Source of the DNA: an uncultured Methylomirabilota bacterium
Lineage (GTDB): Bacteria > Methylomirabilota > Methylomirabilia > CAVQYV01
Direction: 5' to 3'
DNA length: 64,000 nucleotides
NCBI GenBank assembly: GCA_963718295.1
Contig: CAVQYV010000008.1
Span: forward strand, 79,098-143,097
Both the position numbers and the translations under genes were made by a program. Positions 12,800 to 51,246 of the stretch are shown here, in pieces (positions within the stretch are counted from its first letter, which is position 1; every line of letters starts with the position of its first letter). Under the pieces are notes generated by a model. The model saw only the letters and a list, made by a program, of their open reading frames with translations, had not been told where the DNA came from and did not search any database.

Positions 12800-14098
12800 A
12801 TGGTCTGGGATCCCAAATTCGAGTGCATGCCCATCGCGGAATTGAGGGATCTACAATTGGAGAGGTTGAAGGACACCTGTGAAAGGGTCTATGATCGAGT
12901 CCCCTTCTATTATCATGCCTTTCGCAAGGCGGCTTTCAAGCCGAAGGATTTCAGGTCCCTGGAAGATCTATCCCGGCTTCCCCTCACCACCAAAGACGAT
13001 CTCCGAGACAATTATCCCTTCGGGCTGTTCGCTGTTCCCTTCTCCGACATAGAGGAAATCCATACCTCCTCTGGCACGACGGGAAAACCGATCGTGGGCG
13101 GATATACCCATCGCGATATCGAGCTCTGGTCGGAGGTCATGGCCCGTTCTCTGACCTGCTCCGGCACCACCAAAGACGATGTGGTACAGAATGCCTATGG
13201 GTATGGCCTCTTCACAGGGGGCCTGGGGGTCCATTATGGAGCGAGGCGAATCGGGGCCTCCGTCATTCCCATCTCCGGCGGCAATACCAAGCGTCAGATC
13301 ATGATCATGCAGGATTTCGGGAGCACCATTCTCACCTGCACCCCCTCCTATACCCTCTATCTGGCCGAGGTAGCTGCGGAGATGGGGACCGACTTCTCCC
13401 AGATGAAGCTCAAGTCCGGCAATTTCGGGGCGGAGCCCTGGAGCGAGAATATGCGCACCGAAATTGAGAAAAAGCTCAATCTGCTCGCCCTGGATATTTA
13501 TGGCCTCACCGAGATCATTGGCCCAGGGGTGGCCAACGAATGCCAGGCGAAGCATGGCCTCCATATTTTTGAAGACCACTTCTATCCCGAGATCATCGAT
13601 CCTTCTACTGGCAAAAACCTCGCCGCCGGAGAGGCGGGAGAACTGGTGATCACCACCTTGACCAAACAGGCAATGCCCCTCATCCGCTATCGGACCCGAG
13701 ATATCACCTCCCTCATCCCCGGGACTTGCTCTTGTGGTCGAACGATGGTGCGGATGAAGAGGATCATGGGCCGGACCGATGATATGCTCATCATCCGGGG
13801 CGTCAATGTATTCCCCTCCCAGATCGAAGCCATCTTGATGCGGATCGAGGAAACGGAGCCCCATTACCAGATCGTGGTGGATCGGAAGGGGGCGCTGGAT
13901 GAGCTGGAGGTCCAGGTGGAGGTGAACGAGGGGATCTTTTCCGATGAGATCAAGCGGCTGGAGGATATCGAAAGGAAGATCGAAAGGGAGATAGAGAGCA
14001 CGCTGGGCATCTCAGTAAAGGTGCGGCTGGCAGAGCCGAGATCCATCCAGCGAAGCGAGGGCAAGGCGAAGCGGGTAATCGACAAGAGGAGTCTTTAG
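12800..14098 (+). CDS. phenylacetate-CoA ligase family (PaaK-like aryl-CoA ligase), paralog 1
   Basis: AMP-binding motif SSGTTGKP; N-terminus [24 protein letters not shown] typical of PaaK; ATG at 12800. Confidence 0.85.
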
Positions 14099-14850: not shown

Positions 14851-16152
14851 TTGAAGGTTTGGGAACCGGAGTTCGAGTGCATGAGAGGGGAAACTCTCGC
14901 CCAGTTGCAGCTGGGTAGGCTCCAGGCAACTGCTCATCGCGTCTGGGAGCACGTTCCCTTCTATCGGCAGGCTTTTGGAGAGGTGGGGTTGTCCCCCCGG
15001 GATCTCCGATCGTTAGAGGATCTGAAGGAGTTGCCTTTTACCACCAAGGCAGATTTGCGGGAAAGCTATCCTTACGGGATGTTCGCCGTGCCCTTGAAAG
15101 ATGTGGTGCGGATCCATTCCTCCTCGGGCACCACTGGAAAGCCCACCGTTGTGGGCTATACCCGTAACGACATCCTGAACTGGAGCAACCTGGTGGCCCG
15201 TTTTCTCACGGCAGGCGGGGTCACTGCCGAAGACGTCGTCCAGATCTCCTTCGGCTATGGGCTCTTTACCGGGGGCTTCGGGCTCCATTATGGGGCGGAG
15301 CGCATCGGGGCCTCCGTCATTCCCGTGTCGGCCGGCAACACCCACCGACAGATCATGATCATGCAGGATTTTCGCACCACCGCCCTGGTTTGCACCCCTA
15401 CCTATGCCCTATATCTGTCCGAGGTGATGGCCGAGATGAAGGTGGATCCCCGCTCGATCTCCCTGCGCGTGGGCCTCTTTGGATCGGAACCCTGGTCGGA
15501 GAACATGCGCCGGCAGATCGAGGAGAGGCTCGGTATATGGGCTACCGACAATTATGGCCTGAGTGAGATCATTGGTCCGGGGGTAGCGGGGGAGTGCGAG
15601 GTCAAAGATGGCCTGCACCTCTTCGAGGATCATTTCCTGCCTGAGATCATCGATCCCAAAACTGGGGAGACGCTCCCCCCTGGGCATCAGGGGGAGTTAG
15701 TCCTCACCACCTTGACCAAGGAAGCCTTTCCCATGATCCGCTACCGTACCGGAGACATCACCAGCCTGAATCCCGCCCCCTGTCCCTGCGGCCGCACCCT
15801 GGCCCGGATGAAAAGGGTTTCGGGCCGGACCGATGACATGCTCATCATCCGGGGAGTCAATGTCTATCCCTCCCAAATCGAGCAGGTGCTGCTGGAGATC
15901 GAAGGAACGGTCCCCCATTACCAGATTCTGGTGGAGCGAAAAGGGGCCCTGGACGAGATGGAGGTCCTGGTCGAGGTCTCAGAGAGGATATTCTTCGATG
16001 AGATGAAGAAACAACGTGAGTTGGTGGATCTGATCCAGGAGAGGCTTCGCAGCAGCCTATCGATCTCTGCCAAGGTGAAGCTGGTGGAGCCCAAGACCCT
16101 GGCTCGCTTCGAGGGGAAGGCCCAGAGGGTGGTGGATAAGAGAGAGATATGA
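14851..16152 (+). CDS. phenylacetate-CoA ligase family (PaaK-like aryl-CoA ligase), paralog 2
   Basis: TTG start with RBS gggaggtgagg; SSGTTGKP motif; collinear with paralog 1. Confidence 0.85.
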
Positions 16153-18464
16153 TCAAAGGGCAGGGTGTATCAGATGCTAAGGGGGGTCTGCCCTCTTCCT
16201 CCATGAAGCGAATGCCGCTTTTCTTCATCATGGCAGGGCATATCGTGGTCGATCTCTCCCAGAATATCCTGCCGGTCTTATTGCCGATTCAAAAGGCGGC
16301 CTTTGGCCTCAGCTACTCCCAGGCCGGGTTGGTGGCCACCATGCTGAATCTCACCTCCTCCATGATCCAGCCCGTCTTTGGCTTCATTTCCGACCGCTGG
16401 AAGACCGACTGGTTCATCAGCCTGGGAATCCTTTGGACTGCCCTTTTTATGGGAATGACCGGCCTCGCTCCCAGCTATCCCCTCCTCCTGCTCAGCGTCA
16501 CCTTGGCTGGATTCGGAACGGCCGCCTTTCATCCCCGGGCCACCATGGGAGTCAATTACATCAGCGGCGAGAGGCGGGGATTGGCCATGGCGATCTACAC
16601 CCTGGGAGGAAACCTGGGATTCGCCTTCGGCCCCATTTTCGCGGCCTTCTTCATCCTCCGTTGGGGCATTCAGAGTACTGCCTGGTTGATTGCCTTCTCG
16701 GTGCCGATCGCGATCATCCTCTATGGGTTGCGAAAGAATCTCGCCTCCCCGCCTTCTGCCGTCGCCAAGAAACCTGGCAAGATCGCCTGGTCAGGACTTC
16801 CCTGGAAGGAACTTCTGGCCCTTTCCCTGATCGTCACCCTTCGGTCCTGGACCTATCAGGGCTTCATCATCTATTTGCCCCTCTTTCTCCAAAGTAAGGG
16901 GATCAGCCTCACCGTGGGGAGCCGTCTGCTTTTTGTCTTTCTTCTGTCGGGGGCGATCGCGGGGCTCTTAGGAGGACACCTCTCCGACCATTGGGGGCGC
17001 AAGAAGGTGATCGCGGGGAGCCTTCTCCTCTTCTCCCCTCTGATGCTCCTGGCCCTCCGGCTCACAGGTCCCTGGGTCACCTTGTTTCTGGCATTGGCAG
17101 GGACCATGCTTCTGGCCGGGTTCTCCGTGATCATCGTCTATGCCCAGGAGCTGATGCCGGGGAATCTGGGACTGGCCTCGGGCCTCATGTTGGGACTGGC
17201 CTTTGGAACGGGAGGCATCGGGGTCTTCATTTCCGGCATGATGGCGGATGCATTCGGCCTGGAGAGGAGCATCCTGTTGCTGGCCTTCATGCCTGCTTTG
17301 GCCGGCCTGCTGGCCTTGACCTTGAAAGATCGCCATCTGATCGGGATCGAGAGGATCGGCTACGCAACGCCCTTAAATCTCACCTACAGAAAGGAAGGAC
17401 CAATGGAAGAAAAGACGAATGTGGTGTTGGTGAAAGCAGAGCCGCTGGGCAGATTCTGTATCCAGCTCTTCGAAAAGGTGGGGGTACCCTCCGAGGATGC
17501 CAGGGTGCTCATGGACAATCTGATCGAGGCCGACCTTCGCGGCGTGGACACCCATGGGGTCACCCGAATCGCAGTCTATATCGAGCGGCTCCAGTCGGGG
17601 GCGGTGAAGGCGAGGCCGCAGGTGAAGGTCCTCCAGGAGACCCCGGTCTCTGCGATCCTGGACGGGGATCACGGCCTGGGGCAGATCATGTCGGCCAGGG
17701 CCATGCAGATGGCCATCCAGAAAGCAAAGGCGGGAGTCATCGGGTTGGTAGGGGTGCGGAATTCCACTCACAATGGGGCCATGGCCCACTTCGCCTCGAT
17801 GGCGGTGAAGGAAGACCTGATCGGGATCGGCCTCACCAATACCGTTCCCTTGATGGCGCCCACCGGGGGAAATCAGGCCATGATCGGGAATAACCCATTG
17901 GCCATCGCCGCCCCGGCTGGATCGGAGAAGCCTGTAATCTTCGACATGGCCTGCAGCATTGCCGCACGGGGCAAGATCATCCTGGCGGCAAAGAAGGGCG
18001 ATAAGATCCCTCTCGGGTGGGCGATCGACAAGGAAGGCTTGCCGACGGAGGATGCCAAAGCCGCCTTGGAAGGGCTAATCCTTCCGGTAGGCGGGCACAA
18101 GGGCTACGGACTTGCCCTGATGGTGGATATCCTCTCGGGTGTCCTCACCGGCGCCAACTTTGGTCCAGGGGTGGGTCCGCTCTACAACAACCCCGGCACC
18201 CAGGATATCGGCCATCTCCTGGCAGCCATCAACATCGGGGCCTTCATTCCCATCGCTGATTTCAAGGGGCGGATGGACAAGATGATCCGGGATATCAAGA
18301 ATTCCAAGAAGGCAAAAGGAACCGCAGAGATCTTCTTGCCCGGCGAGATCGAGATGGGGATCGAGGAGAAGCGGCGCAAGGAGGGGATTCCCTTGAGTCG
18401 TGCGGTTTATGACGAGGTGCGCGGCGTGGGTGAGAAATTGGGGGTGAAGGCCGACTTCGCGTAA
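16149..18464 (+). CDS. single ORF joining an MFS transporter (N-terminal about 415 aa) to an Ldh_2 family dehydrogenase (C-terminal about 355 aa)
   Basis: ATG overlaps the PaaK stop (ATATGA); 12-TM-like MFS region, then in the same frame with no stop MEEKTNVVL...DTHGVTR...[20 protein letters not shown] (Ldh_2 signatures); aaggaagga RBS 6 nt before the internal ATG at 17404. Confidence 0.6.
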
Positions 18465-18489
18465 TGTGGTCGAGGGACATTGGATAAAC

Positions 18490-18523
18490 AAAAAGCCGGC
18501 GGTTTTCCGCCGGCTTTTTGTTT
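18490..18523. terminator. bidirectional Rho-independent terminator
   Basis: caaaaa-GCCGGCGG-ttttcc-GCCGGC-tttttgttt between convergent Ldh_2 ORF and cold-shock gene; A-tract and T-tract on either side. Confidence 0.6.
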
Positions 18524-18539
18524 AGGGTCTTGGCAGTGA

Positions 18540-18740
18540 CTACGCCTTTGTTACGTTGTCCGCTTTGGGGCCCTTGGGGCTCTGAACCACGTCAAAGTTT
18601 ACTGCATCACCCTCGGCCAGGGATTTGAAACCATCGCCGCGGATTGCAGAAAAGTGCACGAAAACGTCATTGCCGTCTTCCTGCTCAATGAACCCAAAGC
18701 CCTTGGCGTCATTGAACCACTTCACAGTACCTTGTGCCAT
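18540..18740 (-). CDS. cold-shock protein (CspA family)
   Basis: [33 protein letters not shown] with RNP1/RNP2 motifs; 66 aa from ATG at 18740. Confidence 0.9.
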
Positions 18741-19165
18741 CTGCTTTTTCTTCCTTTCTTTTTCCGGTAACATGCTCCGGGGATGACGGGAGCTACCCGC
18801 CGAAGCTATCAGGGCTTTTGGGAACAAAAAAACCGCCAAGCCTCAGGAGTCTTTAGCGGTTTTCACTGCTACGACAAAAAACGCCTGCAACTTCGTGCGT
18901 ACCTTAACAAGCCCAATCTCATCTGTCAACAAAAAAATTGTGTCGATCTTCGATTTGGATGGTCAAGTCCGGCCAGGCCTTGTCTTTCGCCACTTCCTGG
19001 ACTCAAGGGAGAAGGGCTTGGGGAACGTGGCACACCCTGGAGCCAAGGAACTGGGCCAGCCTCTGGCCCGCATCGGTTCGGTCTTGAAAGACGAATCTCT
19101 TGTTCCTGAGTCTTCTATCTTCGAAGAGGTTTTTCATCACCGCTTAATGAATCCTATCGGATTCG

Positions 19166-20302
19166 CTAAGCCGCAGCCGCCAGGGCCGCCTCTATTTCCC
19201 CCCTGGCAAACTCGGACGTCTCCCGGCTCAGACTCGCCTCCAGGATCTGTTTCGCCCGGCTCCCTCCGATCCTTCCCAAAGCCCATGCCGCATAGCCGCG
19301 GACCAGATCTTCCGGGTCTTCCATCGCCTGAGCGAGGGGGGGGATGAAGGTGGGATCGCCCGTGTTCCCCAGGGCAATGGCGGCGTTTCTCTGAAAGTAT
19401 TTCTTTTCCTGAAGATAGTTGTACATGATCGGTTGGACCCGTTTGGCATAGAACTCATCCGAGAGGTTCAGGATCCTGGGGAGATCGAGGTCCTTTGCCA
19501 CATGAGACAAGAACTCATTGGGAGGCAACTCGGCATTCAGCCTGCCCTTGTTTCTGGGACAGACCTCTTGACAGATGTCGCAGCCATGGATGCAGGTACC
19601 CATTTTCTCTCGCATCTCGGGGGAGATGTAGCTGGTAAGTCCTCCCGGTGCCCCGTCCCGAGTCCAGAAGTTATTGAAGGCAATGCAGCGGCGAGGGTCC
19701 ATCTTGAGCGGCTCATAAATGGCTCCGGTTGGACAGGCTTCGATGCAAGATGAACAATGGGTGGGACAGCCGAGCTCTATAGTTGGCTCATCATAGTCCA
19801 GCTTTACATCCACCACCAAAGAGTAGAGGATGATGAATGATCCAATGCCCTCGGCGTAGGCGAAGGTATTCCTTCCGTAAGTGACGACTCCGGCCCGGGC
19901 CCCCGTCAGCCTCTCCGGGACGCAGATTCCCTGACCTATTTGGCATCCATTCCTCTCCAGGAACTCCCGCATCAATCGGTGCCGAGCGCCGTGAATTCGA
20001 TGTTCCGGAGCATTGTAGGATCTCGTAAGGTAGAGGCGGCCGATTTTGCCCACCAGGTTCTCCGGGAAGGACTCCTTCGAGTAATCGTACACTAAAGATA
20101 CGATGGATTTGGCCGAGGGCATGAGGCTCCTCGGGTGGGCGCCCGCGAGGGGTTTCCGGGGCCCTTCGATGAAAAAGGCATACGATTCCCGCCTGGACTC
20201 GAGTTCCTCGATGTAATCGGGGAATCCGTCAGCAGTGGTGAAGCCCACTTTGCTATAGCCCAGGTCGAGGGCGAAGTCCTTTATGTCTTGCGTGAGCGAC
20301 AT
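19166..20302 (-). CDS. queG: epoxyqueuosine reductase QueG-like
   Basis: Two Cys-rich 4Fe-4S motifs (CPTHCSSCIEACP, CIHGCDICQEVCP) followed by a HEAT-like C-terminus (LVRGYAAWALGRIG). Confidence 0.65.
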   Translation of the reverse strand: MSLTQDIKDFALDLGYSKVGFTTADGFPDYIEELESRRESYAFFIEGPRKPLAGAHPRSLMPSAKSIVSLVYDYSKESFPENLVGKIGRLYLTRSYNAPEHRIHGARHRLMREFLERNGCQIGQGICVPERLTGARAGVVTYGRNTFAYAEGIGSFIILYSLVVDVKLDYDEPTIELGCPTHCSSCIEACPTGAIYEPLKMDPRRCIAFNNFWTRDGAPGGLTSYISPEMREKMGTCIHGCDICQEVCPRNKGRLNAELPPNEFLSHVAKDLDLPRILNLSDEFYAKRVQPIMYNYLQEKKYFQRNAAIALGNTGDPTFIPPLAQAMEDPEDLVRGYAAWALGRIGGSRAKQILEASLSRETSEFARGEIEAALAAAA

Positions 20303-20356
20303 TTTCCCTTTGTCTCCTTCTTCTGTCTCCCCGTTCCTATCAAAAGGCCATGGGCC

Positions 20357-21508
20357 TCATTTCGCCGGAAATTTTTCTGCCAGATACCGTTCCAGCCTCT
20401 TCATGCCCTCCTCGATGTTCTCGATGGAATTGGCATAAGAGAATCGCAGATAGCCCTCTGCGTTGGAGCCGAAGTCGATCCCGGGGGTGCAGCCGACGCG
20501 GGCCTTTTGCAGGATATCGAAGGCAAATTCAAAGGAATCTGCGCAGAAGCGCTTCGCATTGGCGAGGACATAGAAGGCCCCGGTGGGCTCCACGGTGATC
20601 CCGAATCCCAACTCTCGCAGCTTGGGGATGATGAACTTGCGGCGGCTGGCATAGATGTCCTTCATGCGGGCCACATCCGGTCCCGCTTCCCTGAGGGCGG
20701 CGATTCCGGCCCATTGGACGAAGGCATTGGCGGAGATGAAGAAATTCTGCGTCATCTTTTGCAGGGGCCGGACGAACTCCGGCGGGATGATCAGGTAGCC
20801 GAGGCGCCATCCGGTCATGGCGTAGAGCTTGGAGAAGCCGTTGATCACTATGGCGTTGTGGGTGAATTCCAGGATGGAGTGCTCCTTTCCCTCGTAGACC
20901 AGGCCGTGGTAGATCTCATCGGAGATTACCGTTTTTCCCAATTCTGCAATGGCCTGCATCTTCTCCGGGGGCGTTAGATTTCCAGTGGGATTGGCCGGAG
21001 AGTTGAGAAAAATGGCCTGGGTGCGAGGGCCAATCAGGGCTTTGATCTCCTCCGGACGGTATTGAAAGCCCTCCTCTTCGTAGACATTCAGGAAGGTCGG
21101 CTTTCCCTCCGCCATGAGCACGAAATTGGGATAACAGGCATAGTAGGGATTCGGCAGGATTACTTCGTCCCCGGGCTCCAGCAGGCTCAGAAAGAGGAGA
21201 AGCATCCCGGGCGAGGTCCCCGAGGTGACCAGGATCTGGTCTGGGCTTACCTCCACCCCGTATTGATTGTGATAGTGCTCCGCAATGGCCTCTCGAAGCT
21301 CCAGGACGCCCAGGCTATGGGTGTAATGGGTCTTTCCGTCTCGGATGGCGCGGATCGCCGCCTCCTTGACGCATTCCGGCGTGTCGAAATCCGGCTCGCC
21401 CACCTCCAGGTGCACGATATCCTCTCCTTTGCGCTCCATGGACGCCGCCTTCTCCATCACCTCCATCACAATGAAAGGGGAAATCTCGCCAGACCTCTTG
21501 CTAACCAT
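20357..21508 (-). CDS. pyridoxal-phosphate-dependent aminotransferase, class I
   Basis: GEPDFDTP, PLP-lysine motif NGFSKLYAMTGWRLGY; RBS gggagg before ATG at 21508. Confidence 0.8.
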   Translation of the reverse strand: MVSKRSGEISPFIVMEVMEKAASMERKGEDIVHLEVGEPDFDTPECVKEAAIRAIRDGKTHYTHSLGVLELREAIAEHYHNQYGVEVSPDQILVTSGTSPGMLLLFLSLLEPGDEVILPNPYYACYPNFVLMAEGKPTFLNVYEEEGFQYRPEEIKALIGPRTQAIFLNSPANPTGNLTPPEKMQAIAELGKTVISDEIYHGLVYEGKEHSILEFTHNAIVINGFSKLYAMTGWRLGYLIIPPEFVRPLQKMTQNFFISANAFVQWAGIAALREAGPDVARMKDIYASRRKFIIPKLRELGFGITVEPTGAFYVLANAKRFCADSFEFAFDILQKARVGCTPGIDFGSNAEGYLRFSYANSIENIEEGMKRLERYLAEKFPAK

Positions 21509-22252
21509 GTTTGCCTCCCACCGATTCATTTCACGAGGGTCCCACATGCATGGGCCGTAGCGCTCTTGTACTCAATTCGACGGGGAAAGTCAAGGACCCA
21601 AGCCACTGACGGCTATTGGGCTTGGAGCCCCCGAGCCTGGCCGGCCAAGAGGACACTGATCTTCGCGCGCGGCATGTTCTCTCTCGATCCCATGAGACAG
21701 AGAGGTAACAAAGAGGGCAGTAGACTACCCAGAATGCGGTAGCGCTTCCCCCTTGTATACCTTTATGGCCGAGGGCATGCCGAGAGATCTGCTGAAAGCC
21801 CCGTGGCCCGACTCATCGGTCTTAGCCGCGAGACGATACATGCAATGGCTTGGTTTTTGCAAAAATTGTCCTCCGTAAGCGAGGAAGAAAACCCCATCCC
21901 CAATAGTCCTTCAACAGAGCCATTCACCATGAGAGACATACCATTCAAATTACGCCGAAAGAGCAACCCTGAGGCCATCAAAAGGCGATCCAAGCATTTT
22001 TCTGGGGGCCGCGAAGACGGAAGAGAACTGGACTGGCATAAGAAATCCAAGAGGATGGACAGTTCGCTGCGCGAGGACGATTCCGATTTCGAGAGCCCCT
22101 GGCAATCTCCATTCCCGGCTTGGTGAGCCAGATACTGCTTTGTCCCTGTAGGTGCGGTTTCAGAGTTGAAGGATGGTGTGGATTTCCACTCCAGAGACCA
22201 CATGCTGTGCAGCGCCGCGATAGGAGTATGGTTCAAGGAAGGGAGTGGAGCA

Positions 22253-24087
22253 ATGCGACGGAATCAGATCCAAATGCTCGTAGTTGCAGCTCTTGTTTTC
22301 TTCTCACTCTTGGGTGAGGTAGCACCTTCTGAGGCCTCCACCAGCGTTTTCCAGGGGTTGGAGCGCTACCCCGTGAATGGAAAGGAATGGATACCATTGG
22401 TGGATGGCAAAGCATATTTTCGGGATGCCTTCGTAGGCGGTTTGACAGCCATTCTCGACGCTGCCGATGGGGAGGAATGGGGAGGTTCGGTGGTCCGGCC
22501 TGATGGTTCCTATCTCTACTGGTATCCCATTAGATTCCATTCGAATTACCAGGGTAAATCGGACTGCTTTGTATGCTCGAATTGGCGAGAGCCCGTCTGT
22601 GGCTCGAACAGCATCATGATGCGTTGGTATACGAATGTACGTCCCGATGCGGATAGCGGATTGCCATGCTATCCCACTGGCCTCTGGAGGTATAGCTTCA
22701 CGAAGAACGGCGTTGCCTTTGCTACTCCGGAATTCACGCTTTTGCCACAGATTCCTGGGGTGCCGTGCTTCAGCCAAGGAGACCAGCAACACACCTTAGC
22801 GATTCCATCTGTAAGGGGCCGAGGAGACAATGGTCGCATTACATCCGTTCGCTGCGGCGGAAAGTACCAGATTCCCTGGACGATTGCTGCCAAAGGGTGT
22901 CTCCTGGTTAACGCTGTTATGATTCTACAATACCACGGGGTGACTACAGGGAGTCGACGGCGGAACCTGTGACGCCGGAGAACCTGAATGCCTGGCTAAT
23001 TGAAACAGGGTACGGCTATGACGCCGATAGGTGAACTGAGACTGCCAAAAGCTGAGAAAGTACTCGGGCGGGCAAGTGACATATCGCCAAATGGTCGAGT
23101 TGGATACTGATGTTCCATAGCGATGCTTTCCTTCGAGAAGAAATGTGCAAGTATGGACCTACCGTGATCCGGGTCCAGTTCGCCCGCCGGGTCATCCGGG
23201 GCCACTTCGTGGTAGGCGACTGGGCGGGACTACCCCGCAGGAAAGCACCTGGCTGATTAACGATCCAGCCGGAGGAGAAGTGACTACGTTGGCCCAAATA
23301 TGGAAATCGATACTATTGTCTCCGGAGGTTTACTGGCCCGGAATTTGGTTGGACGGACCGTTTAGTGGACTCAGTATCAAGCTATACTCCCCTGCGGAGT
23401 TCTTCTCACTGACCCGCAGGGACGGCGGACAGGGCGGGACCCCATCAGCAACATGGGCTTACAGGGAGATTCCGCGCTCTGCTTACGTGGACGTCTGCAT
23501 TGCAGATGCGGAGAATGGCGAACTCGTCCCTCCGGTAATGGAACTTGAGGTATTGCGAGCCTATAGACGGGACTTACACCCTACAGGTGACGGGGATTGA
23601 AGCGGGAGGTTACAGTCTCTATATTCGGCCTGAAGATCGGACAGGGGAATCGGCCTCCCAGACGTTGCTCGGGGAGATCCCTACCTATCCAGGTGCTATC
23701 CACAGCTATACTATCGAATACTCTGCTACTCCCGGTGCCATATTGAAGCTCTTCGGTGGCTTTGACGGACACGGCCAAAGGCCCAGTAACGTAAACATGT
23801 TCCTGTCCTACGGCAACCCTATGAGCTCTCGGGTTCAGCTTGAGGCGGGTGAGAAGACATTTCCTCTTGTGATCTTATACGGAGCCACCATTCAGCCGCA
23901 AACCTTTCGGGCTACGCTAAATGGAACGGATATAACGGCCCAGTTCCGCCCTATCCCCGGAGGAACCGAACTGATCAACCTGTCGCTGGATCCTGGCTCA
24001 AACCCATTAGTTCTGTCCGTAGACGGTGCCACCGCCTCGGGCAGGGTGGCCACGGACACGGACCGCTTGGTCTTCCTAGTGCCATGA
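22253..24087 (+). pseudogene. secreted protein with C39-like (papain-fold) peptidase domain plus C-terminal beta-rich module; several frameshifts
   Basis: Signal peptide MRRNQIQMLVVAALVFFSLLGEVAPSEA; peptidase motifs VPCFSQ, KGCLLVNAVMILQYHG, and in a shifted frame GHFVVGDWAG then LINDPAGG; coding continues across at least three frame changes (track ORFs 22166..22972, 23145..23600, 23545..24087). Confidence 0.5.
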
Positions 24088-24952
24088 GATCGGGATTCCT
24101 TTCCTGCATCTTCTTGTTAATTTTGATTATCGCGCCACCGATCAGGCAGCTCGAAATCGGAGCGACCCCCCCAGATCCCCAGCAAACACTCATGGAGAGA
24201 AAGCCGTCCAAAGAGCCCTTTCACAGTCTCACCCTCAGGCTCTTGGGTCTTAAGATGGACCGGATCAGTCAAAATTTGGTGAGCGAGCTTCTTCTGACCG
24301 ATTCCCAGGGGCGGCGAACGGGAACAGACCCCATGGCAAGAGCCAGATATAAGGAAATCCCTCAATCCGCCTACATAGAGGAATATATGGTTCGTCCAAT
24401 GAAAGAGCTTGAGATCTCCAAGCCGCTCGACGGATCATATATCGTTGCAGGTGATCGGGATAAACCGCGGAAGTTACGATTTGTCGACCTATCCGACCGA
24501 CGAAGCCGGAGACTCCCCCAATCAGCCCCGCTTTGATAACATCCCTATCGCACCCCGAATGGTACACGCCTACAAGCTGGACTACACTCGTACCCCTGGA
24601 ATTCCTCTCAAGGTCACCGGCGGCTTCGACGGGGGAGGAAAGGGGCCAACAGATATGAACAACTTCTTGACCTATGCAAATCCCATTTCCACTGAAACCG
24701 ACAATCCGGGCTGGAAAGACCCCCTTTCCTTTGATCCTATTTTATGCCCCCACCATCGATCCCGCTAGCTTCACGGCTACGCTGGATGGCGTCGATATCT
24801 CACGCCGGTTCAAGCCGATCCCCGGTGGCTACCAGGTCATTCCCCTCAAGTTCAGTGTTGGCTCGCATACCCTGATGCTTTCGGTGCAAGGGAAGACCTC
24901 CGGCGGCGAGGCGGCCACGGACACGGACAAGCTCACTTTCTCGGTTCATTGA
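24084..24952 (+). pseudogene. secreted paralog carrying only the C-terminal module of the upstream gene; two frameshifts
   Basis: ATGA start/stop overlap with upstream gene; signal peptide MRSGFLSCIFLLILIIAPP; homology to gene 1 module (GGFDGGGKGP..., ATLDGVDISRRFKPIPGG..., TDTDKLTFSVH) spread over frames at 24084, 24409 and 24674. Confidence 0.45.
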
Positions 24953-25809: not shown

Positions 25810-26100
25810 GATTCTTCCCTTGCCTTTGTCAGTAGATTCTCATAGCATACCAGTAGGGCCCGTATCTCGCGCATCGTTGTTCCGGGTTGAAAGGAGTTTC
25901 TTCGCAGCGGAGACGACCAGGCAACGGTCCGGCTCTGGCTGGCGACGCGGACGGGTCGGCCGGCAGGCGGTGAGGAGCTTATTGCCCTAGTGGAACGGCT
26001 GACGGGTCGTGACCTGCGCAAAGGGCCGCCGGGAAGGCCCAGAAAGGCGCAGGCATAAAACAGTATTATGTCCCCGGATTCCCCTGTCCCCGGATTCCCC
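25810..26100 (+). mobile_element. REP/RAYT-like element, copy B (internally deleted derivative, MITE-like)
   Basis: Same 5' end; retains only first about 8 codons (start ATG changed to AGG) fused to transposase C-terminal coding (TRTGRPAGGEELIALVERLTGRDLRKGPPGRPRKAQA); ends gtattatgtcccc plus ggattcccctgtccccggattcccc, inverted relative to the 5' end. Confidence 0.7.
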
Positions 26101-26196
26101 CGGACAAGGCTGATCACTTCATTTTCAGATGTAATAATCATTCGCTTTAGAAGTCTAAGCTGTTCCGAAACCATTTTACAATTAAAGGAGAGGTGT

Positions 26197-27024
26197 ATGA
26201 AAAAGATTTCAGTATTATTCGTCTTAGCGATTCTCTTTGTTTCTTCGATTTCCCTTGCTCAAGAAAAAGATATGAAAGGTTCGCAAGATCATCCGTTGCT
26301 TTCAAGAATTCCTAACTACTACATAAGCGACCAAGCAAAAAAAGATTTCGATAGTTATACATCCCCATACATTGATAAAGATAATGTTTGGGAAGGAAAG
26401 CTCACTCAAACAAATTATTCCGCTAAAGAAGGAACTAAAGAATTAAGCTTCCTTCAGATAGTAAAAAATTATGAAAATGCCATAAAAAAACTGGGCGGAA
26501 AAATATTGTTATCAGAAACTCGAATATTAAACGCTAAGATCGAAAAAAATAAAGGCGTTACTTATGTAAGCGTTGAGGCATTTAATGACGGAAGAAATTA
26601 CACTTTGATTATCGTCGAAAACAAACCGATGGAAGACGAAGTTACTATTGACGCTGCATCTTTGAGTAAAGGTATTTCTGAAACAGGAAAAATTGCTATT
26701 TACGGAATTTATTTTGACACCGGCAAATCAGATATCAAACCGGAATCTAAGCCAACAATTGTTGAAATTGTAAAAATGCTAAAACAAAACTCAAAGCTAA
26801 AGCTTTTTGTTGTTGGGCATACAGATATTGATGGTTCCTTGGAATCAAATATGAAATTATCATCAGGCCGCGCAGCTTCGGTTGTCAAAGCTTTAATTGA
26901 AAATGGAATTCAGGCTTCAAGATTAAAATCTGGTGGAGTTGGACCTTACTGCCCGGTTGAAAGTAATCATACCGAAGGAGGAAAAGCAAAAAACCGTAGA
27001 GTCGAGTTAGTAGAAATGTTTTAA
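26197..27024 (+). CDS. OmpA family protein (lipoprotein-like signal, C-terminal OmpA peptidoglycan-binding domain)
   Basis: MKKISVLFVLAILFVSSISLA signal; C-terminal IYFDTGKSDIKPES...LFVVGHTDIDGSLESNMKLSSGRAASV...NRRVELVEMF; AT-rich codon usage unlike the rest of the window; RBS aaaggagagg. Confidence 0.85.
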   Translation: MKKISVLFVLAILFVSSISLAQEKDMKGSQDHPLLSRIPNYYISDQAKKDFDSYTSPYIDKDNVWEGKLTQTNYSAKEGTKELSFLQIVKNYENAIKKLGGKILLSETRILNAKIEKNKGVTYVSVEAFNDGRNYTLIIVENKPMEDEVTIDAASLSKGISETGKIAIYGIYFDTGKSDIKPESKPTIVEIVKMLKQNSKLKLFVVGHTDIDGSLESNMKLSSGRAASVVKALIENGIQASRLKSGGVGPYCPVESNHTEGGKAKNRRVELVEMF

Positions 27025-27178: not shown

Positions 27179-28613
27179 ATGTTCGTCAGGCTCAAGAGCT
27201 ATTTATCTAAAGGCAACAGATACGAATATCTCCAGATCGTCGAATCCTATCGGGATCACGGTGCCGTCCGCCAGAGAGTCGTGTCTAATATCGGCCGGCT
27301 CGATCTGCTGGCCGCCTCCGAGCAACTCGATCAGATCGTTTCGGGCCTCTCCCGCTACAGCGAGGCCTACCGTGGATTTCAAGCCTTCCTCCGGGGGAGC
27401 TGGAAGGATGTACCGCCCGCACCTGGGGACCCTGCCGATCTTTGGCCGGCTCTGGGAGGATCAGCGGCTGCCGGAGGTGATCCGGCATCTGGCCCAGGGA
27501 CGAGGGTTCCAGTTCGAAGTGGAACGAGCGGTCTTCGCCCTGGCGCTGCAACGGCTCTGTGCCCCGGGAGCGATCTTTCCGGTCGAGGATGGCTGGAGAC
27601 GGTAGAGGCCCCCGGATTGCAGGCATTGCGCCTGCAGCATCTGTACCGGACCTGCACGTTCCTGGCCGGGATCCGGGAAGAGCTGGAGCGGGAGCTCTTC
27701 TTCCGGGACCGGGATCTCTTCTCCCAGGAGCTGGACCTGGTCTTCCTGGACACCACCTCCACCTATGTGTACCGGGATCAGGAGACGCCCTATCGGCGAC
27801 GGGGGTTCTCCCGGGATCGCCGGGCCGATCTGCCCCAGTTCGTCCTGTGCGTGGCGGTGGATGCCAAGGGGTGGCCCGTAGCCTGGGAGATCTATCCGGG
27901 CAACACGGCGGACGGGGTCGCCCTGGAGCGGATCGTGGGAGCCCTGCGGGAGCGCTTTCGGATTCGGCGGGCCATCGTGGTGGCCGACCGGGGGATGATG
28001 TCCCGGGAGACGATCCGGCTGCTGGAGGCACACCCGGCCCCCTTCGACTACATCCTGGGCTGTCGGATGCGAGAACAAAAGGAGGTACGCGAAGAGGTGC
28101 TGGCCCGGGTGGGCCGCTACCAGGTCGTAGCCGGGAACCTGGAGGTGAAAGAGGTGAGCGTAGGAGGCAAGCGCTACCTCGTCTGCCGCAACCCGGAGGA
28201 GGTCCAGAAGGATCAGGCGGCCCGGGAGGCTATCCTGGCCCAGCTGGAGGAGGTCCTCTCTCAGGGTCCAAGGGACTCATGGCCAACAAGGGGTATAGGC
28301 GTTTCCTGAAGATCGGGAAAGGCTCGGTGCGCATCGATCCTTTGGCCGTCGAGCAGGATGCCCGCCTGGACGGCAAGTTCGTGCTGGCCACCAATACCGA
28401 TTGCCCGCAGCGGAGGTGGCCCGAAGCTACAAGAGCCTCTGGCGGGTGGAGCGTACCTTTCGCGAGGAGAAATCTACCTTGGAGGTGCGGCCATCTATCA
28501 CCATCGGGATGACACCTGCATCGGCACATCGTCGCCTCCTTTTGGCCCTGCGCCTGGAGGTGGACCTGCAACGGAGACTGGAGGAGAAGGAAATCGAGGC
28601 CCGGCCCAGCTGA
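27179..28613 (+). pseudogene. IS4-superfamily (IS1634-family-like) DDE transposase, multiply frameshifted
   Basis: N-terminus MFVRLKSYLSKGNRYEYLQIVESYRDHGAVRQRVVSNIGRLD; DDE region LVFLDTTSTYVY...VVADRGMMS; C-terminal segments DGKFVLATN and YKSLWRVERTFREEKSTLEVRP lie in two further frames. Confidence 0.55.
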
Positions 28614-46658: not shown

Positions 46659-47816
46659 CTAAAAGGCCAGCATCATCCGCGCATAGATCTCGGCGGCCTT
46701 CACCACCTGGTCCATCTCCACGAATTCTGATGCGGTATGGGCCTGGTCGATGCTGCCCGGCCCCAAGACGATCGTGGGAATGCCGGCCCGGGCGGTCTTG
46801 CTCCCATCCGTTCCGTAGGGAACGCCCTTCACCTTGACCTTTCCCAATACCTCGGAGATGGCCGCCTTCGCTACGTCAGCTACCTCTTCGGTCTCCCGGG
46901 TCTCCAGAGGATAATCCACCAGGAAGGGAGTCTCCATGGCCACCTGCAGCTCGGGGTCCCGGCCCCTCATTCCCTCCAGGAGTTCCTCAAAGGAGGCCAA
47001 AACCGAGTCCGGATCCTCCCCCGGGTTCAGGCGGCGGTCCAGCTCGATGACGCAGCGGTCCGGCACGATATTGATCTGAACTCCCCCCTCGATCTTTCCG
47101 ATGCTCAAGGTGGGTGGACCCACCAGGGGATGGCTGATTTGGGATAGGCGGGGCTGCATTTCCTCCTCGATCCGGTCGATGATCCGGGCCATCTTGGTGA
47201 TGGCATTGATCCCTTCCTTGGGCTTGGAGCTATGGGCCGCCTTCCCGGTCACCACGATCCTCCAACGCACCATTCCCTTGTGGGCAATGACCAAGTCCAA
47301 CTCGGTGGGCTCCCCTGCCACTGCGCCCTGCGCCCGGAAGCCGCCCTTCAGGAAATGGAGGATCCCCTTGAAGGTGTACTCCTCATCCACCGATCCCAGG
47401 AAATAGATGTCTGCCTTAGGCCTCCCTTGTTCCTTTACGGCCTTGAGGGCACAGAGCATGGCCGCGATGGAGGCCTTGTCGTCGCAGGCCCCCCTCCCAT
47501 AGAGGCGCCCCTGCTCGATCTTGGGATGGAAAGGGTCGATTTCCATTCCCTCGACCGGCATGGTATCCAGGTGGGCTTCAAAAAGCAGTCTCCTCCGGGA
47601 GTCAGCACCGGCGAGTCTTCCCAGGATGTTGGGCCGCCCGGGCAAGGCTTCATCTCGCTGGACCTCCATTCCCAGGGCCCTCAGGTAGTCGAAGATGTAA
47701 TTGCCGATCACTGCCTCTCCGTTCTTTGCCCCTTTCATGCTGGGGTTGATGCTCTCGATGGCGACCAGGTCCGACAGGACATTGATGACGTGCTCCCGGT
47801 CTACGGCGACTTGCAT
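46659..47816 (-). CDS. M20 family metallopeptidase / deacylase (ArgE/DapE-like)
   Basis: HLDTMPV and GACDDKAS metal-ligand motifs. Confidence 0.75.
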   Translation of the reverse strand: MQVAVDREHVINVLSDLVAIESINPSMKGAKNGEAVIGNYIFDYLRALGMEVQRDEALPGRPNILGRLAGADSRRRLLFEAHLDTMPVEGMEIDPFHPKIEQGRLYGRGACDDKASIAAMLCALKAVKEQGRPKADIYFLGSVDEEYTFKGILHFLKGGFRAQGAVAGEPTELDLVIAHKGMVRWRIVVTGKAAHSSKPKEGINAITKMARIIDRIEEEMQPRLSQISHPLVGPPTLSIGKIEGGVQINIVPDRCVIELDRRLNPGEDPDSVLASFEELLEGMRGRDPELQVAMETPFLVDYPLETRETEEVADVAKAAISEVLGKVKVKGVPYGTDGSKTARAGIPTIVLGPGSIDQAHTASEFVEMDQVVKAAEIYARMMLAF

Positions 47817-50101
47817 GACAAGCTCCTTTCTATTCGATATTCTGTCTTTGCTTTCGCTTCTTTCACGAAGGCCACCAGGAAGATCCAGGCGGCAAGGTTG
47901 ATGAAGGTCAATAGCAAAAGGGACTTAAGAATCCCCCATAGGGGTAGGAGGAGCGCCGAGAAGAGCAGGGCGCCCAGGGCGGAGCCCCAGAGGTCCACGG
48001 CATAGAGGGTCCCCCATGCCGCCTGGGAGCGGCTCTTAACCCACAGGGCATTCGCGAGGCAGAACTGCAGCCCTCCCAAGGCTCCTACTGCCAGGAGGAA
48101 GAAGAAGGAAAGGACCTCCACCCAACCCGACGAACCGGCGGAAGGCATGGATCCCCTCAGGGCCAGGAAGAAGAGGACACAGCAACCCATCAGGGCAGCC
48201 TGGGCGGTGAGAAGCCATCTCCTGAGACCTTGCGCTCTCCTCCCCCAGGAGGCCCCGATCCCCAAGCCGAGCATGAAGGCCGCCAGGAGGAGTCCCAGCT
48301 TGTGATAGATGAACCCATAAGAGATCTGGAAGGCCAGTAACGCTATGATCTCCAGGGAGATGGAGGTGAGGCCAGCGACAAAAACCGACCCCAAGACCGC
48401 GCCACTTGCGAGAGAGCCTCTGGTCGCCCCCAGAAAAACCAGGGAGGCGAGCAGGGCCAGGAGGCAGAGGGAGATCATAACCCAGGAAGTCCGCATGAGG
48501 AAGGGGAAAATGCTCCTTTCCCAGGCGCCGAATTGGGAGGCCCAAAGGGCAGCTCCATATAAGTGGCAGAGGGGCTCCAGATCTCGATTGATCCGAGCGT
48601 CCTGTCCCATCAGTCGATCATTCAGATAGTTCATCTTGAAGGGATGCAGGCGGAAGGGGATGAGGAACTCATTGACATATTGGTTATTGAGCTGCCGCTC
48701 CCGCAGCCGGGCGGCCAACTCCCGCGAGTCGCGCAGGAGAAGGCCCCTCTGGGGGCTGGCGAAAAATAGGCAGGTCTCTCCGGGAAAGGCCACCACCTCG
48801 GCAAAGACAGACCCCAGGGTATTCTGGATCAAAGCCAGGTATCGGGCCAGGTCCTCACTCAGGTAGTTCTCACTCGATGATACGCGGAAGGAAAAGACAC
48901 CCACCGGTTCGAGATGATCTTTTACGATCTGGAAGAATTCCCGGGTGTAAAAGCGGTTCAATTGGAGGGTGCGGGGGTCGGGGAGGTTGAGGATGATGAG
49001 GTCGTATCGTCTGTTGGATTGGCTCAACAGCAAACGCCCATCCCCATATCGGACCCTCACCCGGGGATCCTGGAGCACACTTGCTTCGGGGGGGATGTGT
49101 CGGGCCGCGAGATCGATGACCTGGGGATCCAACTCCGCGTAGTCGATCGTTAGCTTGGGATATTTGAGGGCCTGGGCCACTCCACCCCCCACGCCCCCTC
49201 CCAGGAGGAAGAGGGATTGTGGAGCGGGATGCTGCAGCAGGGCGAAATGGACTCCCTCTTCGGCGGCCGCCGGGTCGGGATAGGAGAAGAGGCGGAGGCC
49301 ATTCTCGAATAGATCGACCTGCCCCCATCGTTTCGTGACCGCAACATTGCCGTAAAGGGTATCGCGGGTATCCAGAAGGTTCAGCCCGCGCCAATGAAAT
49401 CTCCAGGAGAGCCGATCGAGGGCGGAAGGGAGGCCAAAAAAGAAGGAGAGGAGGAAAAATGCCAGCAGGAGAGCATTCACGACCAAGAGCCGCCTCGTCC
49501 CGGGCCATCGGAAGAGATCGAGTGCTATCAGCAAGTTGAGAAGCAGAATGAGAAAAGAGATCTTCAGGTTGGAAAGATGGGGGATGAAAAGATAGGTGCA
49601 GAGCATGCCTCCCAAGAAGGCCCCAATGGCCTCCCAGAGATAGACGAAAGAGACGGCCTGTCCGGGTCCACCTGAGGTCCGGGCGAAGAAGCGGGCGTTC
49701 AAGACAAACAGGAAGCCCAGGAGGAGACATAGGGGGAGGCTCAGGAGGAAGGAGAGAAGGAGGATTGTCGCCAAGGGCATGACTTCCCCCGGCCCCATGC
49801 CTAACAGGGGGCGCGCACTGCGAATCATGAGGAGGCAGACCGGGAGGGAAAAGCCAAGGGCCCCGTAGGCAAACGACAGGACCCTTTCCTCCTGATCAGC
49901 ACGATACCGGCGGGCGAGGAAATTGGCCAGGAAGCTTCCGGTCCCGACCCAGACCAGCCAGGCCGAGAGCATGATCCCCAGGGAGAGCTCGTTGCCGTAG
50001 GCCGCCACTACCATCTCCCGTAAGAGGAGGATCTGGGAGACGGCAGAGGTGAGACCCAAAGAAAGGGGAGAGGAGAGGAGGGCTCCCCTGCCCGAAATCA
50101 T
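47801..50101 (-). CDS. fused membrane (MFS-like) / spermidine synthase-like protein
   Basis: About 12 TM helices followed by aminopropyltransferase-like region (LFLLGGGVGG...IDYAELDPQVIDLA...DPRVRVRYGDGR...YDLIILNLPDP). Confidence 0.75.
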   Translation of the reverse strand: MISGRGALLSSPLSLGLTSAVSQILLLREMVVAAYGNELSLGIMLSAWLVWVGTGSFLANFLARRYRADQEERVLSFAYGALGFSLPVCLLMIRSARPLLGMGPGEVMPLATILLLSFLLSLPLCLLLGFLFVLNARFFARTSGGPGQAVSFVYLWEAIGAFLGGMLCTYLFIPHLSNLKISFLILLLNLLIALDLFRWPGTRRLLVVNALLLAFFLLSFFFGLPSALDRLSWRFHWRGLNLLDTRDTLYGNVAVTKRWGQVDLFENGLRLFSYPDPAAAEEGVHFALLQHPAPQSLFLLGGGVGGGVAQALKYPKLTIDYAELDPQVIDLAARHIPPEASVLQDPRVRVRYGDGRLLLSQSNRRYDLIILNLPDPRTLQLNRFYTREFFQIVKDHLEPVGVFSFRVSSSENYLSEDLARYLALIQNTLGSVFAEVVAFPGETCLFFASPQRGLLLRDSRELAARLRERQLNNQYVNEFLIPFRLHPFKMNYLNDRLMGQDARINRDLEPLCHLYGAALWASQFGAWERSIFPFLMRTSWVMISLCLLALLASLVFLGATRGSLASGAVLGSVFVAGLTSISLEIIALLAFQISYGFIYHKLGLLLAAFMLGLGIGASWGRRAQGLRRWLLTAQAALMGCCVLFFLALRGSMPSAGSSGWVEVLSFFFLLAVGALGGLQFCLANALWVKSRSQAAWGTLYAVDLWGSALGALLFSALLLPLWGILKSLLLLTFINLAAWIFLVAFVKEAKAKTEYRIERSLSCKSP

Positions 50102-51246
50102 CCCCAGACCCCAGGGATCTTCTCTCCGCAGTATCGGCAGGCCCCTTTTTGGAGATGGTTTTCCCGGATGCTATAGCCGACTCGACGGATCAGGGTCTTG
50201 CGACAGCGCGGACAATAGGTGTTCTCACCTTCGTGGCCCGGGACATTGCCAATGTAAACGAAAGAAAGGCCCGCATCCAGGGCAATCTGCCGTGCCCTCT
50301 CCAGGCTCTTCACCGGAGTAGGCGGGAGGTTCTTGAGCAGGTACATGGGGTGGAACCGTGTGAAATGGACCGGGACATGGGGGGAAAGCTCATTTTTGAT
50401 CCAATGACACATCTTGCGGATCGCTCCCTCCTGGTCATTGAGGGTGGGCACGGTCAGATAGACGATCTCATACCAGACACCTTGTTTCTTGAGGATCTTG
50501 AGGGATTCCAGGACCGGCTTCAGCTCCCCCTTGCAGACCTCTTGGTAGTACTTCTCGGTGAAGGCCTTCAGATCCACCTTGACCGCGTCAACTTGCCCGC
50601 AGAGTTCGGTAAGCGGTTCAGGATTGATGAAGGCATTGGTGACCACCACGCTCTTCAATCCCTTTCTTCTGGCCAGCCGGGCGATGTCGATCATATACTC
50701 AAAGAAGATGACCGGCTCGGAATAGGTGTAGGCAATGGAAGTGCATCCGGCTTGCTGCGCTTCAGAGACGATGGCCTCCGGAGGCAGATAGGAGTTCTGA
50801 ACCTGCTCTGGACGCACCTGGGAGATATCCCAATTCTGGCAGAATTTGCAGTGGATGTTGCACCCCGCCGTAGCCAGGGAAAAGGCCAGGGTGGAGGGCA
50901 GAAAATGAAAGAAGGGCTTTTTCTCGATAGGATCGACATTCAGGGCGGTGGGCCGGGAGTGGACCAGGGTATAGTAGGTGCCTTCTCGATTTTCCCTTAC
51001 TCCACAGAAGCCCCGCTCCAGATCGCCCACCCGGCAGCGCCGCGGGCAAAGTTGGCACTCCACCTCCTGGTTGGAGAGCCTCTGGTAGTATCTGGCCTCC
51101 ACCCGGGAGAGTTCGGGGACTCCGGCGAAGGCATCCTGCCCTTGCCCGTCATCCCAGATCGGATCCAGGGGAATGCGGGAGAGCGTGAAAACACAGGCCC
51201 CACCCACAACCCCCTTCAGAAACTGTCTCCGAGTGATGAATTTCAT
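50098..51246 (-). CDS. AmmeMemoRadiSam-system-type radical SAM enzyme with N-terminal twin-arginine (Tat) signal
   Basis: CNIHCKFC radical SAM cluster motif; N-terminus MKFITRRQFLKGVVGGACVFTL matches the Tat consensus. Confidence 0.75.
   Translation of the reverse strand: MKFITRRQFLKGVVGGACVFTLSRIPLDPIWDDGQGQDAFAGVPELSRVEARYYQRLSNQEVECQLCPRRCRVGDLERGFCGVRENREGTYYTLVHSRPTALNVDPIEKKPFFHFLPSTLAFSLATAGCNIHCKFCQNWDISQVRPEQVQNSYLPPEAIVSEAQQAGCTSIAYTYSEPVIFFEYMIDIARLARRKGLKSVVVTNAFINPEPLTELCGQVDAVKVDLKAFTEKYYQEVCKGELKPVLESLKILKKQGVWYEIVYLTVPTLNDQEGAIRKMCHWIKNELSPHVPVHFTRFHPMYLLKNLPPTPVKSLERARQIALDAGLSFVYIGNVPGHEGENTYCPRCRKTLIRRVGYSIRENHLQKGACRYCGEKIPGVWG

Follow-up and report, generated by a model that had tools for sequence, protein, structure and literature searches.

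An apparent MFS transporter and Ldh_2 dehydrogenase fusion that differs by a single base from 2 separate genes

The 64,000-nucleotide (nt) stretch of DNA analysed here, hereafter called the window, covers positions 79,098 to 143,097 of contig CAVQYV010000008.1 in assembly GCA_963718295.1 of an uncultured Methylomirabilota bacterium. It contains an open reading frame (ORF) of 771 codons in which a transporter of the major facilitator superfamily (MFS) is joined to a dehydrogenase of the Ldh_2 family. According to the ORF listing of the window, this frame covers positions 16149-18464 on the plus strand, starts with ATG and contains no internal stop codon. The N-terminal half of the product of 771 amino acids (aa) matched Pfam MFS_1 in 2 stretches, the best of which was located at aa 28-257 (131.6 bits, with a cut-off of 33.4), while the C-terminal half matched Pfam Ldh_2 at aa 429-757, corresponding to profile positions 2-332 of 333 (416.6 bits, with a cut-off of 38.8, E 9e-125). 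Two full-length domain matches within a single stop-free frame are far beyond chance. These results confirmed a first-pass annotation, which had reported the transporter and the Ldh_2 enzyme in one 771-codon ORF without a separating stop, and all of the peptide motifs quoted there were found in the ORF. As detailed below, the ORF very probably represents 2 adjacent, normally separate and co-transcribed genes that have been joined by a single extra base in one record, and not a conserved or selected architecture.

The extra base was identified by comparison with a 4,033-nt contig (L019) from another assembly, the Logan assembly of run ERR11561443, which was 99.95% identical to the window over 4,034 nt. 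Only 2 differences were observed between L019 and window positions 16809-20842, namely T17347, which was absent from this independent assembly of the same strain, and an A/G difference at position 20570. Without T17347, the transporter frame of the window terminates at a TAA codon at positions 17374-17376, and with T17347 it shifts into the frame of the Ldh_2 gene. The difference can equally be described as an extra G in positions 17343-17345 relative to a second contig, L014, which reads GGATCG where the window reads GGGATCG and L019 reads GGGACG. The sequences across the junction are CTGATCGGGACGAGAGG in L019, CTGATCGGATCGAGAGG in L014, CTGATCGGATGTAGAGGATCGAGAGG in a third contig, L020, and CTGATCGGGATCGAGAGG in the window. 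Loss of the signals between the genes, as after a long-term fusion, was not observed, and the TAA codon, the 26-nt spacer and the ribosome-binding site (RBS; AAGGAAGGA) were intact and identical to those in L019, L020 and L014. One of the explanations put forward in the first-pass annotation was that of 2 genes whose stop had been lost, which was correct with regard to the 2 genes, but the stop has not been mutated; rather, the TAA codon is displaced from the frame by one base located 27 nt upstream.

The in-frame internal ATG codon is located at positions 17403-17405, corresponding to codon 419, and is preceded by the RBS at 17391-17399, with 3 nt between the end of the RBS and the ATG, and 7 nt between the first AAGGA and the ATG. 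Thus, both of the elements noted in the first-pass annotation exist, but the ATG starts at 17403, not at 17404, and the RBS is spaced from it by 3 nt, not by 6 nt.

The strain alignments showed that the sequence around the extra base varies in length. The stretch between the motifs CATC and GAGAGG consists of 1 nt in L002, L006, and L009, 10 nt in L014 and L019, 19 nt in L020 and 11 nt in the window. The lengths of 1, 10, and 19 nt are all equal to 1 modulo 3, such that the TAA codon is kept in frame, and the 11 nt in the window alone break the frame. A 10-nt insertion in the window was considered and rejected, because 9 of these nucleotides are a lineage-wide, in-frame insertion present in L014, L019, and L020, and 1 nt is private to the window. 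It was also considered whether the site could direct programmed recoding, by which ribosomal frameshifting or transcriptional slippage would give both separate and fused products, given that both frames are open around the site and that it contains GATCG repeats. However, recoding is needed for neither product, since the zero frame is the fused one in the window and the separate one in every relative. Furthermore, no slippery heptamer or long homopolymer was found at the site, where the longest run is GGG, and, in contrast to a conserved signal for recoding, both the length and the sequence of the stretch differ freely from strain to strain. We find this explanation barely credible.

The transporter and Ldh_2 genes were separate in all relatives examined, which included 7 syntenic contigs with 72% to 89% protein identity and 7 independent relatives with 96% to 99.95% identity. 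In all of these, the stop codon of the transporter gene (363 to 411 aa) was located 25 to 26 nt ahead of the ATG of the Ldh_2 gene. The syntenic contigs (L002, L003/L004/L005, L006/L007/L008, and L009) shared the order of a PaaK-like ligase (AMP-binding), an ACT-domain protein, a second PaaK-like ligase, an MFS_1 transporter (363 to 389 aa), a gap of 25 to 26 nt, and an Ldh_2 enzyme (353 to 356 aa). One of them, L009, is a metagenome-assembled genome in GTDB, which was the best match in the scan of genome contigs (89%) and contained the 2 genes as separate units. The transporters in L002, L003, L006, and L009 were 72% to 79% identical to the transporter in the window, and ended with KDRHPRG(S/L)A(D/A)(Q/E)R(A/S) followed by the stop codon.

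The close relatives were obtained by a DNA pattern scan of metagenomes and by exact-protein look-ups, and included L014 from JGI (96.5% identical), L020 from ENA (98.5% identical) and L019. The translations of all 3 contigs showed the transporter stop in frame and a separate Ldh_2 gene, and the identical 353-aa Ldh_2 protein was called as a gene of its own in both L019 and L020. Four transporters (P0298, P0300, P0301, and P0304) were 96% to 98% identical to that in the window, and the orthologous transporters of close relatives ended with RGSATQRP before the stop. A search with the Ldh_2 half identified stand-alone orthologs of 350 to 363 aa with 83% to 89% identity, one of which was named by NCBI as coming from a candidate division NC10 bacterium.

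The true transporter-enzyme fusion suggested in the first-pass annotation was therefore not supported, since the ortholog comparison proposed there showed separate genes throughout, and the stop codon between the parts, which it had named as the observation that would speak against a fusion, was seen many times. In Rosetta-stone fusions, functionally linked neighbours are found fused in some genomes, and a selected, bifunctional protein of this type could take up a hydroxy- or oxo-acid and, in a coupled step at the membrane, oxidise or reduce it. The window record resembles such fusions in that 2 conserved operon neighbours appear as one polypeptide. The adjacency of the 2 genes, with a gap of 25 to 26 nt, is conserved across the NC10-like group, which suggests a functional link, and the predicted topology of the transporter is compatible with a fusion. 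However, a Rosetta-stone link can be inferred only from a fusion that at least one lineage has maintained, whereas the one observed here is private to one record and derives from one base. No relative has the fusion at any of the distances sampled, the native stop, spacer, and RBS have been preserved and are only displaced from the frame, and a fusing change of a single base has left no time for adaptation of a linker. We consider a selected fusion to be highly improbable.

The fused product was unique to one record in the protein databases. The exact 771-aa sequence occurred once among about 15 billion proteins, on a single NCBI/ENA contig of 696,518 nt, presumably the one from which the window derives. 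Its 90% cluster contained 13 further members, each with a single domain, of which 4 were MFS transporters (365 to 411 aa, ending with SATQRP) and 9 were Ldh_2 proteins (eight of 353 aa and one fragment of 203 aa). An exhaustive HMMER search with the full fused query, in which a protein similar to the query in both halves would rank first, identified no protein with both an MFS and an Ldh_2 domain among the best 150 of 1.84 billion cluster representatives. All of these 150 matches were single-domain proteins of 281 to 461 aa, with the exception of a 777-aa protein (P0190), which was examined as a possible fusion and rejected, as it contained a tandem double Ldh_2 without a transporter. A full-length homolog search gave no fused match and only distant MFS proteins with at most 52% identity, but the cluster of the query itself was apparently not displayed, so this search was uninformative on close relatives. 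Exact look-ups of the 771-aa product, a 753-aa product, and 3 other proteins from the window gave no entry in the gene-position index.

It was also noted that the 771-aa record bridges the MFS transporters and the Ldh_2 enzymes into one 90%-identity cluster, the representative of which is a 390-aa MFS protein. One frameshifted entry in a public database can contaminate clustering in this manner, leading to wrong transfer of annotations and to false Rosetta-stone links between domains, and the main value of this case is one of caution.

In the mechanism that we propose, T17347 in the indel-prone GATCG micro-repeat shifts the transporter frame by +1, nine codons ahead of the TAA codon, and the shifted frame coincides with the Ldh_2 frame, which is open across the 26-nt spacer, such that both genes read as one. 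In both L014 and L019, no stop interrupts the Ldh_2 frame over the 168 codons that precede the Ldh_2 ATG. A +1 or -2 indel anywhere in the last approximately 150 codons of the transporter gene would therefore fuse the 2 genes, for which reason the length of the fused ORF adds no evidential weight. Since the Ldh_2 gene has kept its RBS and ATG without change, and all relatives share them, translation from this start should still yield a soluble 353-aa enzyme, whether or not the extra base is real. Internal initiation giving a soluble enzyme, which the first-pass annotation had listed among its explanations, is thus plausible, since the RBS and the ATG form the native, conserved start of what is a stand-alone gene in every relative, but it is a consequence of the arrangement and not a rival to it. 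If the base is real, a fraction of the Ldh_2 protein would in addition be produced attached to the C-terminus of the transporter, on the cytoplasmic side, and ribosomes that read through from the transporter gene might reduce internal initiation at the Ldh_2 ATG.

To judge from hydropathy, the transporter half contains 12 predicted transmembrane (TM) helices in 2 six-helix halves with a cytoplasmic central loop (aa 195-214) that contains 5 K/R residues, in accordance with its MFS_1 match above the gathering score. The helix count was obtained with a crude hydropathy script, not a dedicated predictor, and 13 greedy peaks were read as 12 helices, with 2 peaks assigned to the long TM7 region. The segments rich in K/R were the N-terminus, loops 2-3, 4-5, 6-7, and 8-9, and the C-terminal tail, which corresponds to the usual MFS topology with both termini inside the cell (N-in/C-in). 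The first-pass annotation had raised the question of which side the dehydrogenase would face, and with a predicted C-in topology a fused enzyme would face the cytoplasm. If the extra base is real, the Ldh_2 domain would be joined to TM12 by about 25 residues, and a fusion should be topologically tolerable according to this model.

The transporter resembles Fsr-type MFS proteins (annotated by JGI as "FSR family, fosmidomycin resistance protein-like") in its MFS_1 match, its 12 hydrophobic segments, and the positive-inside pattern, and the closest homologs outside its own cluster, with 31% to 52% identity, carry the FSR name. It differs from them in that no NCBIfam subfamily cut-off was reached (best 52 bits, with a cut-off of 408), and in that its C-terminal tail runs into the next gene, which was seen in the window record only. 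The homolog with 52% identity (P0001) was not followed by an Ldh_2 gene, and the pairing of the 2 genes is claimed here for the NC10-like group. The native start of the transporter gene is probably the ATG at position 16203 (MKRMPLFF...), because the orthologs begin with MNMKRLPIF or MKKTPIF. A point against this start is the gene call of P0300 (411 aa), which begins at the counterpart of the ATG at 16149. It was also noted that positions 16101-16260, at the boundary between the upstream ligase gene and the transporter gene, differed from L014 by about 60 substitutions and an 11-nt indel within 160 nt, whereas the next 2.2 kb were 97% to 99% identical. This boundary may be a recombination breakpoint, with an N-terminus of the window type in P0300 and P0304 and a different one in L014.

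The Ldh_2 half showed a full-length match to Pfam PF02615 above the gathering score. It was below all NCBIfam equivalog cut-offs, with 318.7 bits for sulfolactate dehydrogenase (cut-off 500), 264.8 for AllD (cut-off 356), 145 for YiaK (cut-off 316), and 252.5 for another equivalog (cut-off 496), and its substrate can therefore not be named. The nearest solved structures were 1v9n (E 2.7e-84) and 2x06 (E 1.6e-80), with which the motifs DTHGV and GGHKGYGL align. Its full-length Pfam match is as in the Ldh_2 family members from P. horikoshii (1v9n), M. jannaschii (the L-sulfolactate dehydrogenase ComC, 2x06), and E. coli (the ureidoglycolate dehydrogenase AllD). The solved and characterised members of the family are soluble, stand-alone enzymes, like all of the orthologs identified here and unlike the fused record in the window. 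The purine-rich element AAAGGAA(G/A)A at the RBS was conserved in L002, L006-L009, L014, L019, and L020.

The source of the extra base we infer from comparisons between assemblies. We lean towards an error in the assembly or consensus sequence, although only a little more than half of our confidence rests there; a real allele that is private to the strain comes somewhat short of an even chance, and little is left for any other explanation. In addition to the absence of T17347 from L019, a comparison over 11.1 kb of contigs from the same strain (L017, L019, and L021) identified 2 one-base indels that break frames and a single substitution. Indels that outnumber substitutions between assemblies of the same strain are typical of technical error and not of evolution. 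Indels in long-read or mosaic-consensus assemblies are a well-known cause of false frameshifts, as described in PMC12007338, PMC9262707, and PMC8445201. The window record is similar to such indel-made apparent fusions in that it is one base off an otherwise identical, independent assembly, with a frame broken in a gene that all relatives have intact and with more indels than substitutions. It differs from them in that T17347 lies outside a T homopolymer, and in that the window allele resembles a natural intermediate.

Several observations weigh against an error and in favor of a real allele. The window sequence GGGATCG is one step from both the GGATCG of L014 (+G) and the GGGACG of L019 (+T), which makes it an exact one-step intermediate between these 2 alleles, and it brings back the GATCG motif that other strains have. 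A compensated evolutionary intermediate would look like GGGATCG, whereas a random insertion error is not expected to do so. Furthermore, the micro-repeat is a natural hot spot for indels between strains, and T17347 is not contained within a run of T residues. At position 51115, where the window reads GGGG and L021 reads GGG, it is the window that has an intact 382-aa gene and the Logan contig that is broken, so that the window cannot be shown to be the assembly more prone to error. The signs of a window riddled with indels were mixed, since it was correct at position 51115 and contained possible frame breaks at 22.1-25.0 kb. These points bear on the origin of the base, and the frameshift as such is not called into question by them. 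A chimeric consensus of the GGATCG and GGGACG alleles would look the same as a compensated frameshift, and the artefact is possibly a chimeric consensus of this kind, formed from co-existing alleles.

If the base is real, it would represent a very recent +1 frameshift allele in the strain. The mechanism would be the same, with the difference that the base exists in the organism. The product would be a 12-TM transporter in which the last 9 native residues are replaced, followed by a 19-residue shifted stretch (I400-P418) and a cytoplasmic Ldh_2 domain, with soluble Ldh_2 also made from the internal start, and the GGGACG allele of L019 would be a compensating one-base deletion, located 2 bases away, that has restored the stop. 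The N-in/C-in topology would tolerate this fusion and keep the enzyme on the cytoplasmic side, together with its NAD(P)H. However, the allele was found in one assembly only, beside a 99.95% identical contig without T17347, and every other relative keeps the frame, which implies selection for a separate transporter tail and stop; the indel excess described above is a technical rather than an evolutionary signature.

Taken one step further, a real GGGATCG allele could mark the birth of a gene fusion, in which a +1 slip tethers an oxidoreductase to its partner transporter while the start of the Ldh_2 gene still supplies the soluble form, and the GGGACG allele would be a compensatory deletion that undoes the fusion. 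We consider this scenario unlikely. If true, the real allele and its compensated sister would indicate selection against the fused state within one population. A real base would also provide a small example of how easily neighbours in an operon can be fused when the downstream frame is open far upstream, and of how a frame can be restored by a second indel nearby.

The features of the locus are listed in Table 1. The conserved spacing of 25 to 26 nt suggests, from gene order, that the transporter and Ldh_2 genes are co-transcribed, and that uptake or export is functionally linked to the redox conversion of a hydroxy- or oxo-acid. With the pair placed behind 2 PaaK-like ligases and an ACT-domain protein in NC10-like bacteria, the transporter may supply or remove the substrate of the enzyme, an interpretation that is based on the order of the genes and not on the fusion. 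The hairpin downstream of the Ldh_2 gene was detected by folding but not by a scan for consensus terminators, and it probably acts as an intrinsic terminator in both directions at the end of the operon. No Rfam family reached the gathering score anywhere in the 64-kb window, and accordingly no transfer RNA, ribosomal RNA, or riboswitch was detected.

Table 1. Features at the 771-codon ORF and in its surroundings, in window coordinates
Feature	Position	Strand	Basis
PaaK-like acyl/aryl-CoA ligase, first gene of the conserved upstream cluster	12800..14098	+	Pfam AMP-binding and AMP-binding_C_2; order kept in L002, L003, L006
ACT-domain protein, 143 aa	14200..14631	+	ORF; orthologs carry Pfam ACT; identical protein in other assemblies
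Second PaaK-like ligase, 433 aa; stop overlaps ATG 16149 (ATGA)	14851..16152	+	Pfam AMP-binding and AMP-binding_C_2
771-codon ORF as recorded (MFS, shifted tail, spacer, Ldh_2)	16149..18464	+	ORF listing, Pfam
MFS transporter gene proper, Fsr-like, 12 predicted TM helices; reading broken at 17347	16203..17376	+	Orthologs, hydropathy
Indel-prone micro-repeat (GATCG / GAGAGGATCG), encodes the cytoplasmic C-terminal tail of the transporter	17337..17359	+	Strain alignments
Single extra base (T) creating the fusion	17347..17347	+	Comparison with L019; equally one extra G in 17343-17345 relative to L014
Native MFS stop TAA, present but out of frame in the window	17374..17376	+	Alignments; L019 and L020 translations end there
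RBS of the Ldh_2 gene (AAGGAAGGA), within the native 26-nt spacer 17377-17402	17391..17399	+	Sequence; conserved element
Ldh_2-family NAD(P)-dependent 2-hydroxyacid/oxoacid oxidoreductase, 353 aa	17403..18464	+	Pfam Ldh_2, stand-alone orthologs
Strong hairpin with A/T flanks between the convergent Ldh_2 and csp genes	18485..18524	.	-30.9 kcal/mol, z -8.1, 0 of 200 shuffles as good

Some further observations were made elsewhere in the window. At positions 22166-24952 on the plus strand, 2 tandem, paralogous sets of ORFs without a Pfam match were found, each of which was spread over two or three frames. In a tblastn comparison of this region, aa 12-98 matched positions 24442-24702 in frame 1, and aa 92-179 matched positions 24683-24946 in frame 2. 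The split ORFs are either decayed pseudogenes, perhaps in an island, or further indel errors of the assembly. In the segment 26001-28309, a 1-kb stretch had a guanine-cytosine content of 38%, compared to a window mean of 57%, and an ORF with an OmpA domain (26068-27024) adjoined an ORF for a DDE transposase (27179-28309), which together look like a recent foreign insert.

Position 51115 is located within an ORF on the minus strand (50098-51246) for a 382-aa radical-SAM protein with a canonical twin-arginine signal (MKFITRRQFLKG), which matched 3 JGI sequences; the version of this gene in L021 is frameshifted, resulting in a call of 334 aa. Next to it, at 47801-50101 on the minus strand, a 766-aa protein was identified in which a spermine/spermidine-synthase domain covered aa 284-407 only. 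The gene for the 766-aa protein was located between the radical-SAM gene and a gene for a peptidase of the M28/M20-like type, an arrangement that was shared with L021.

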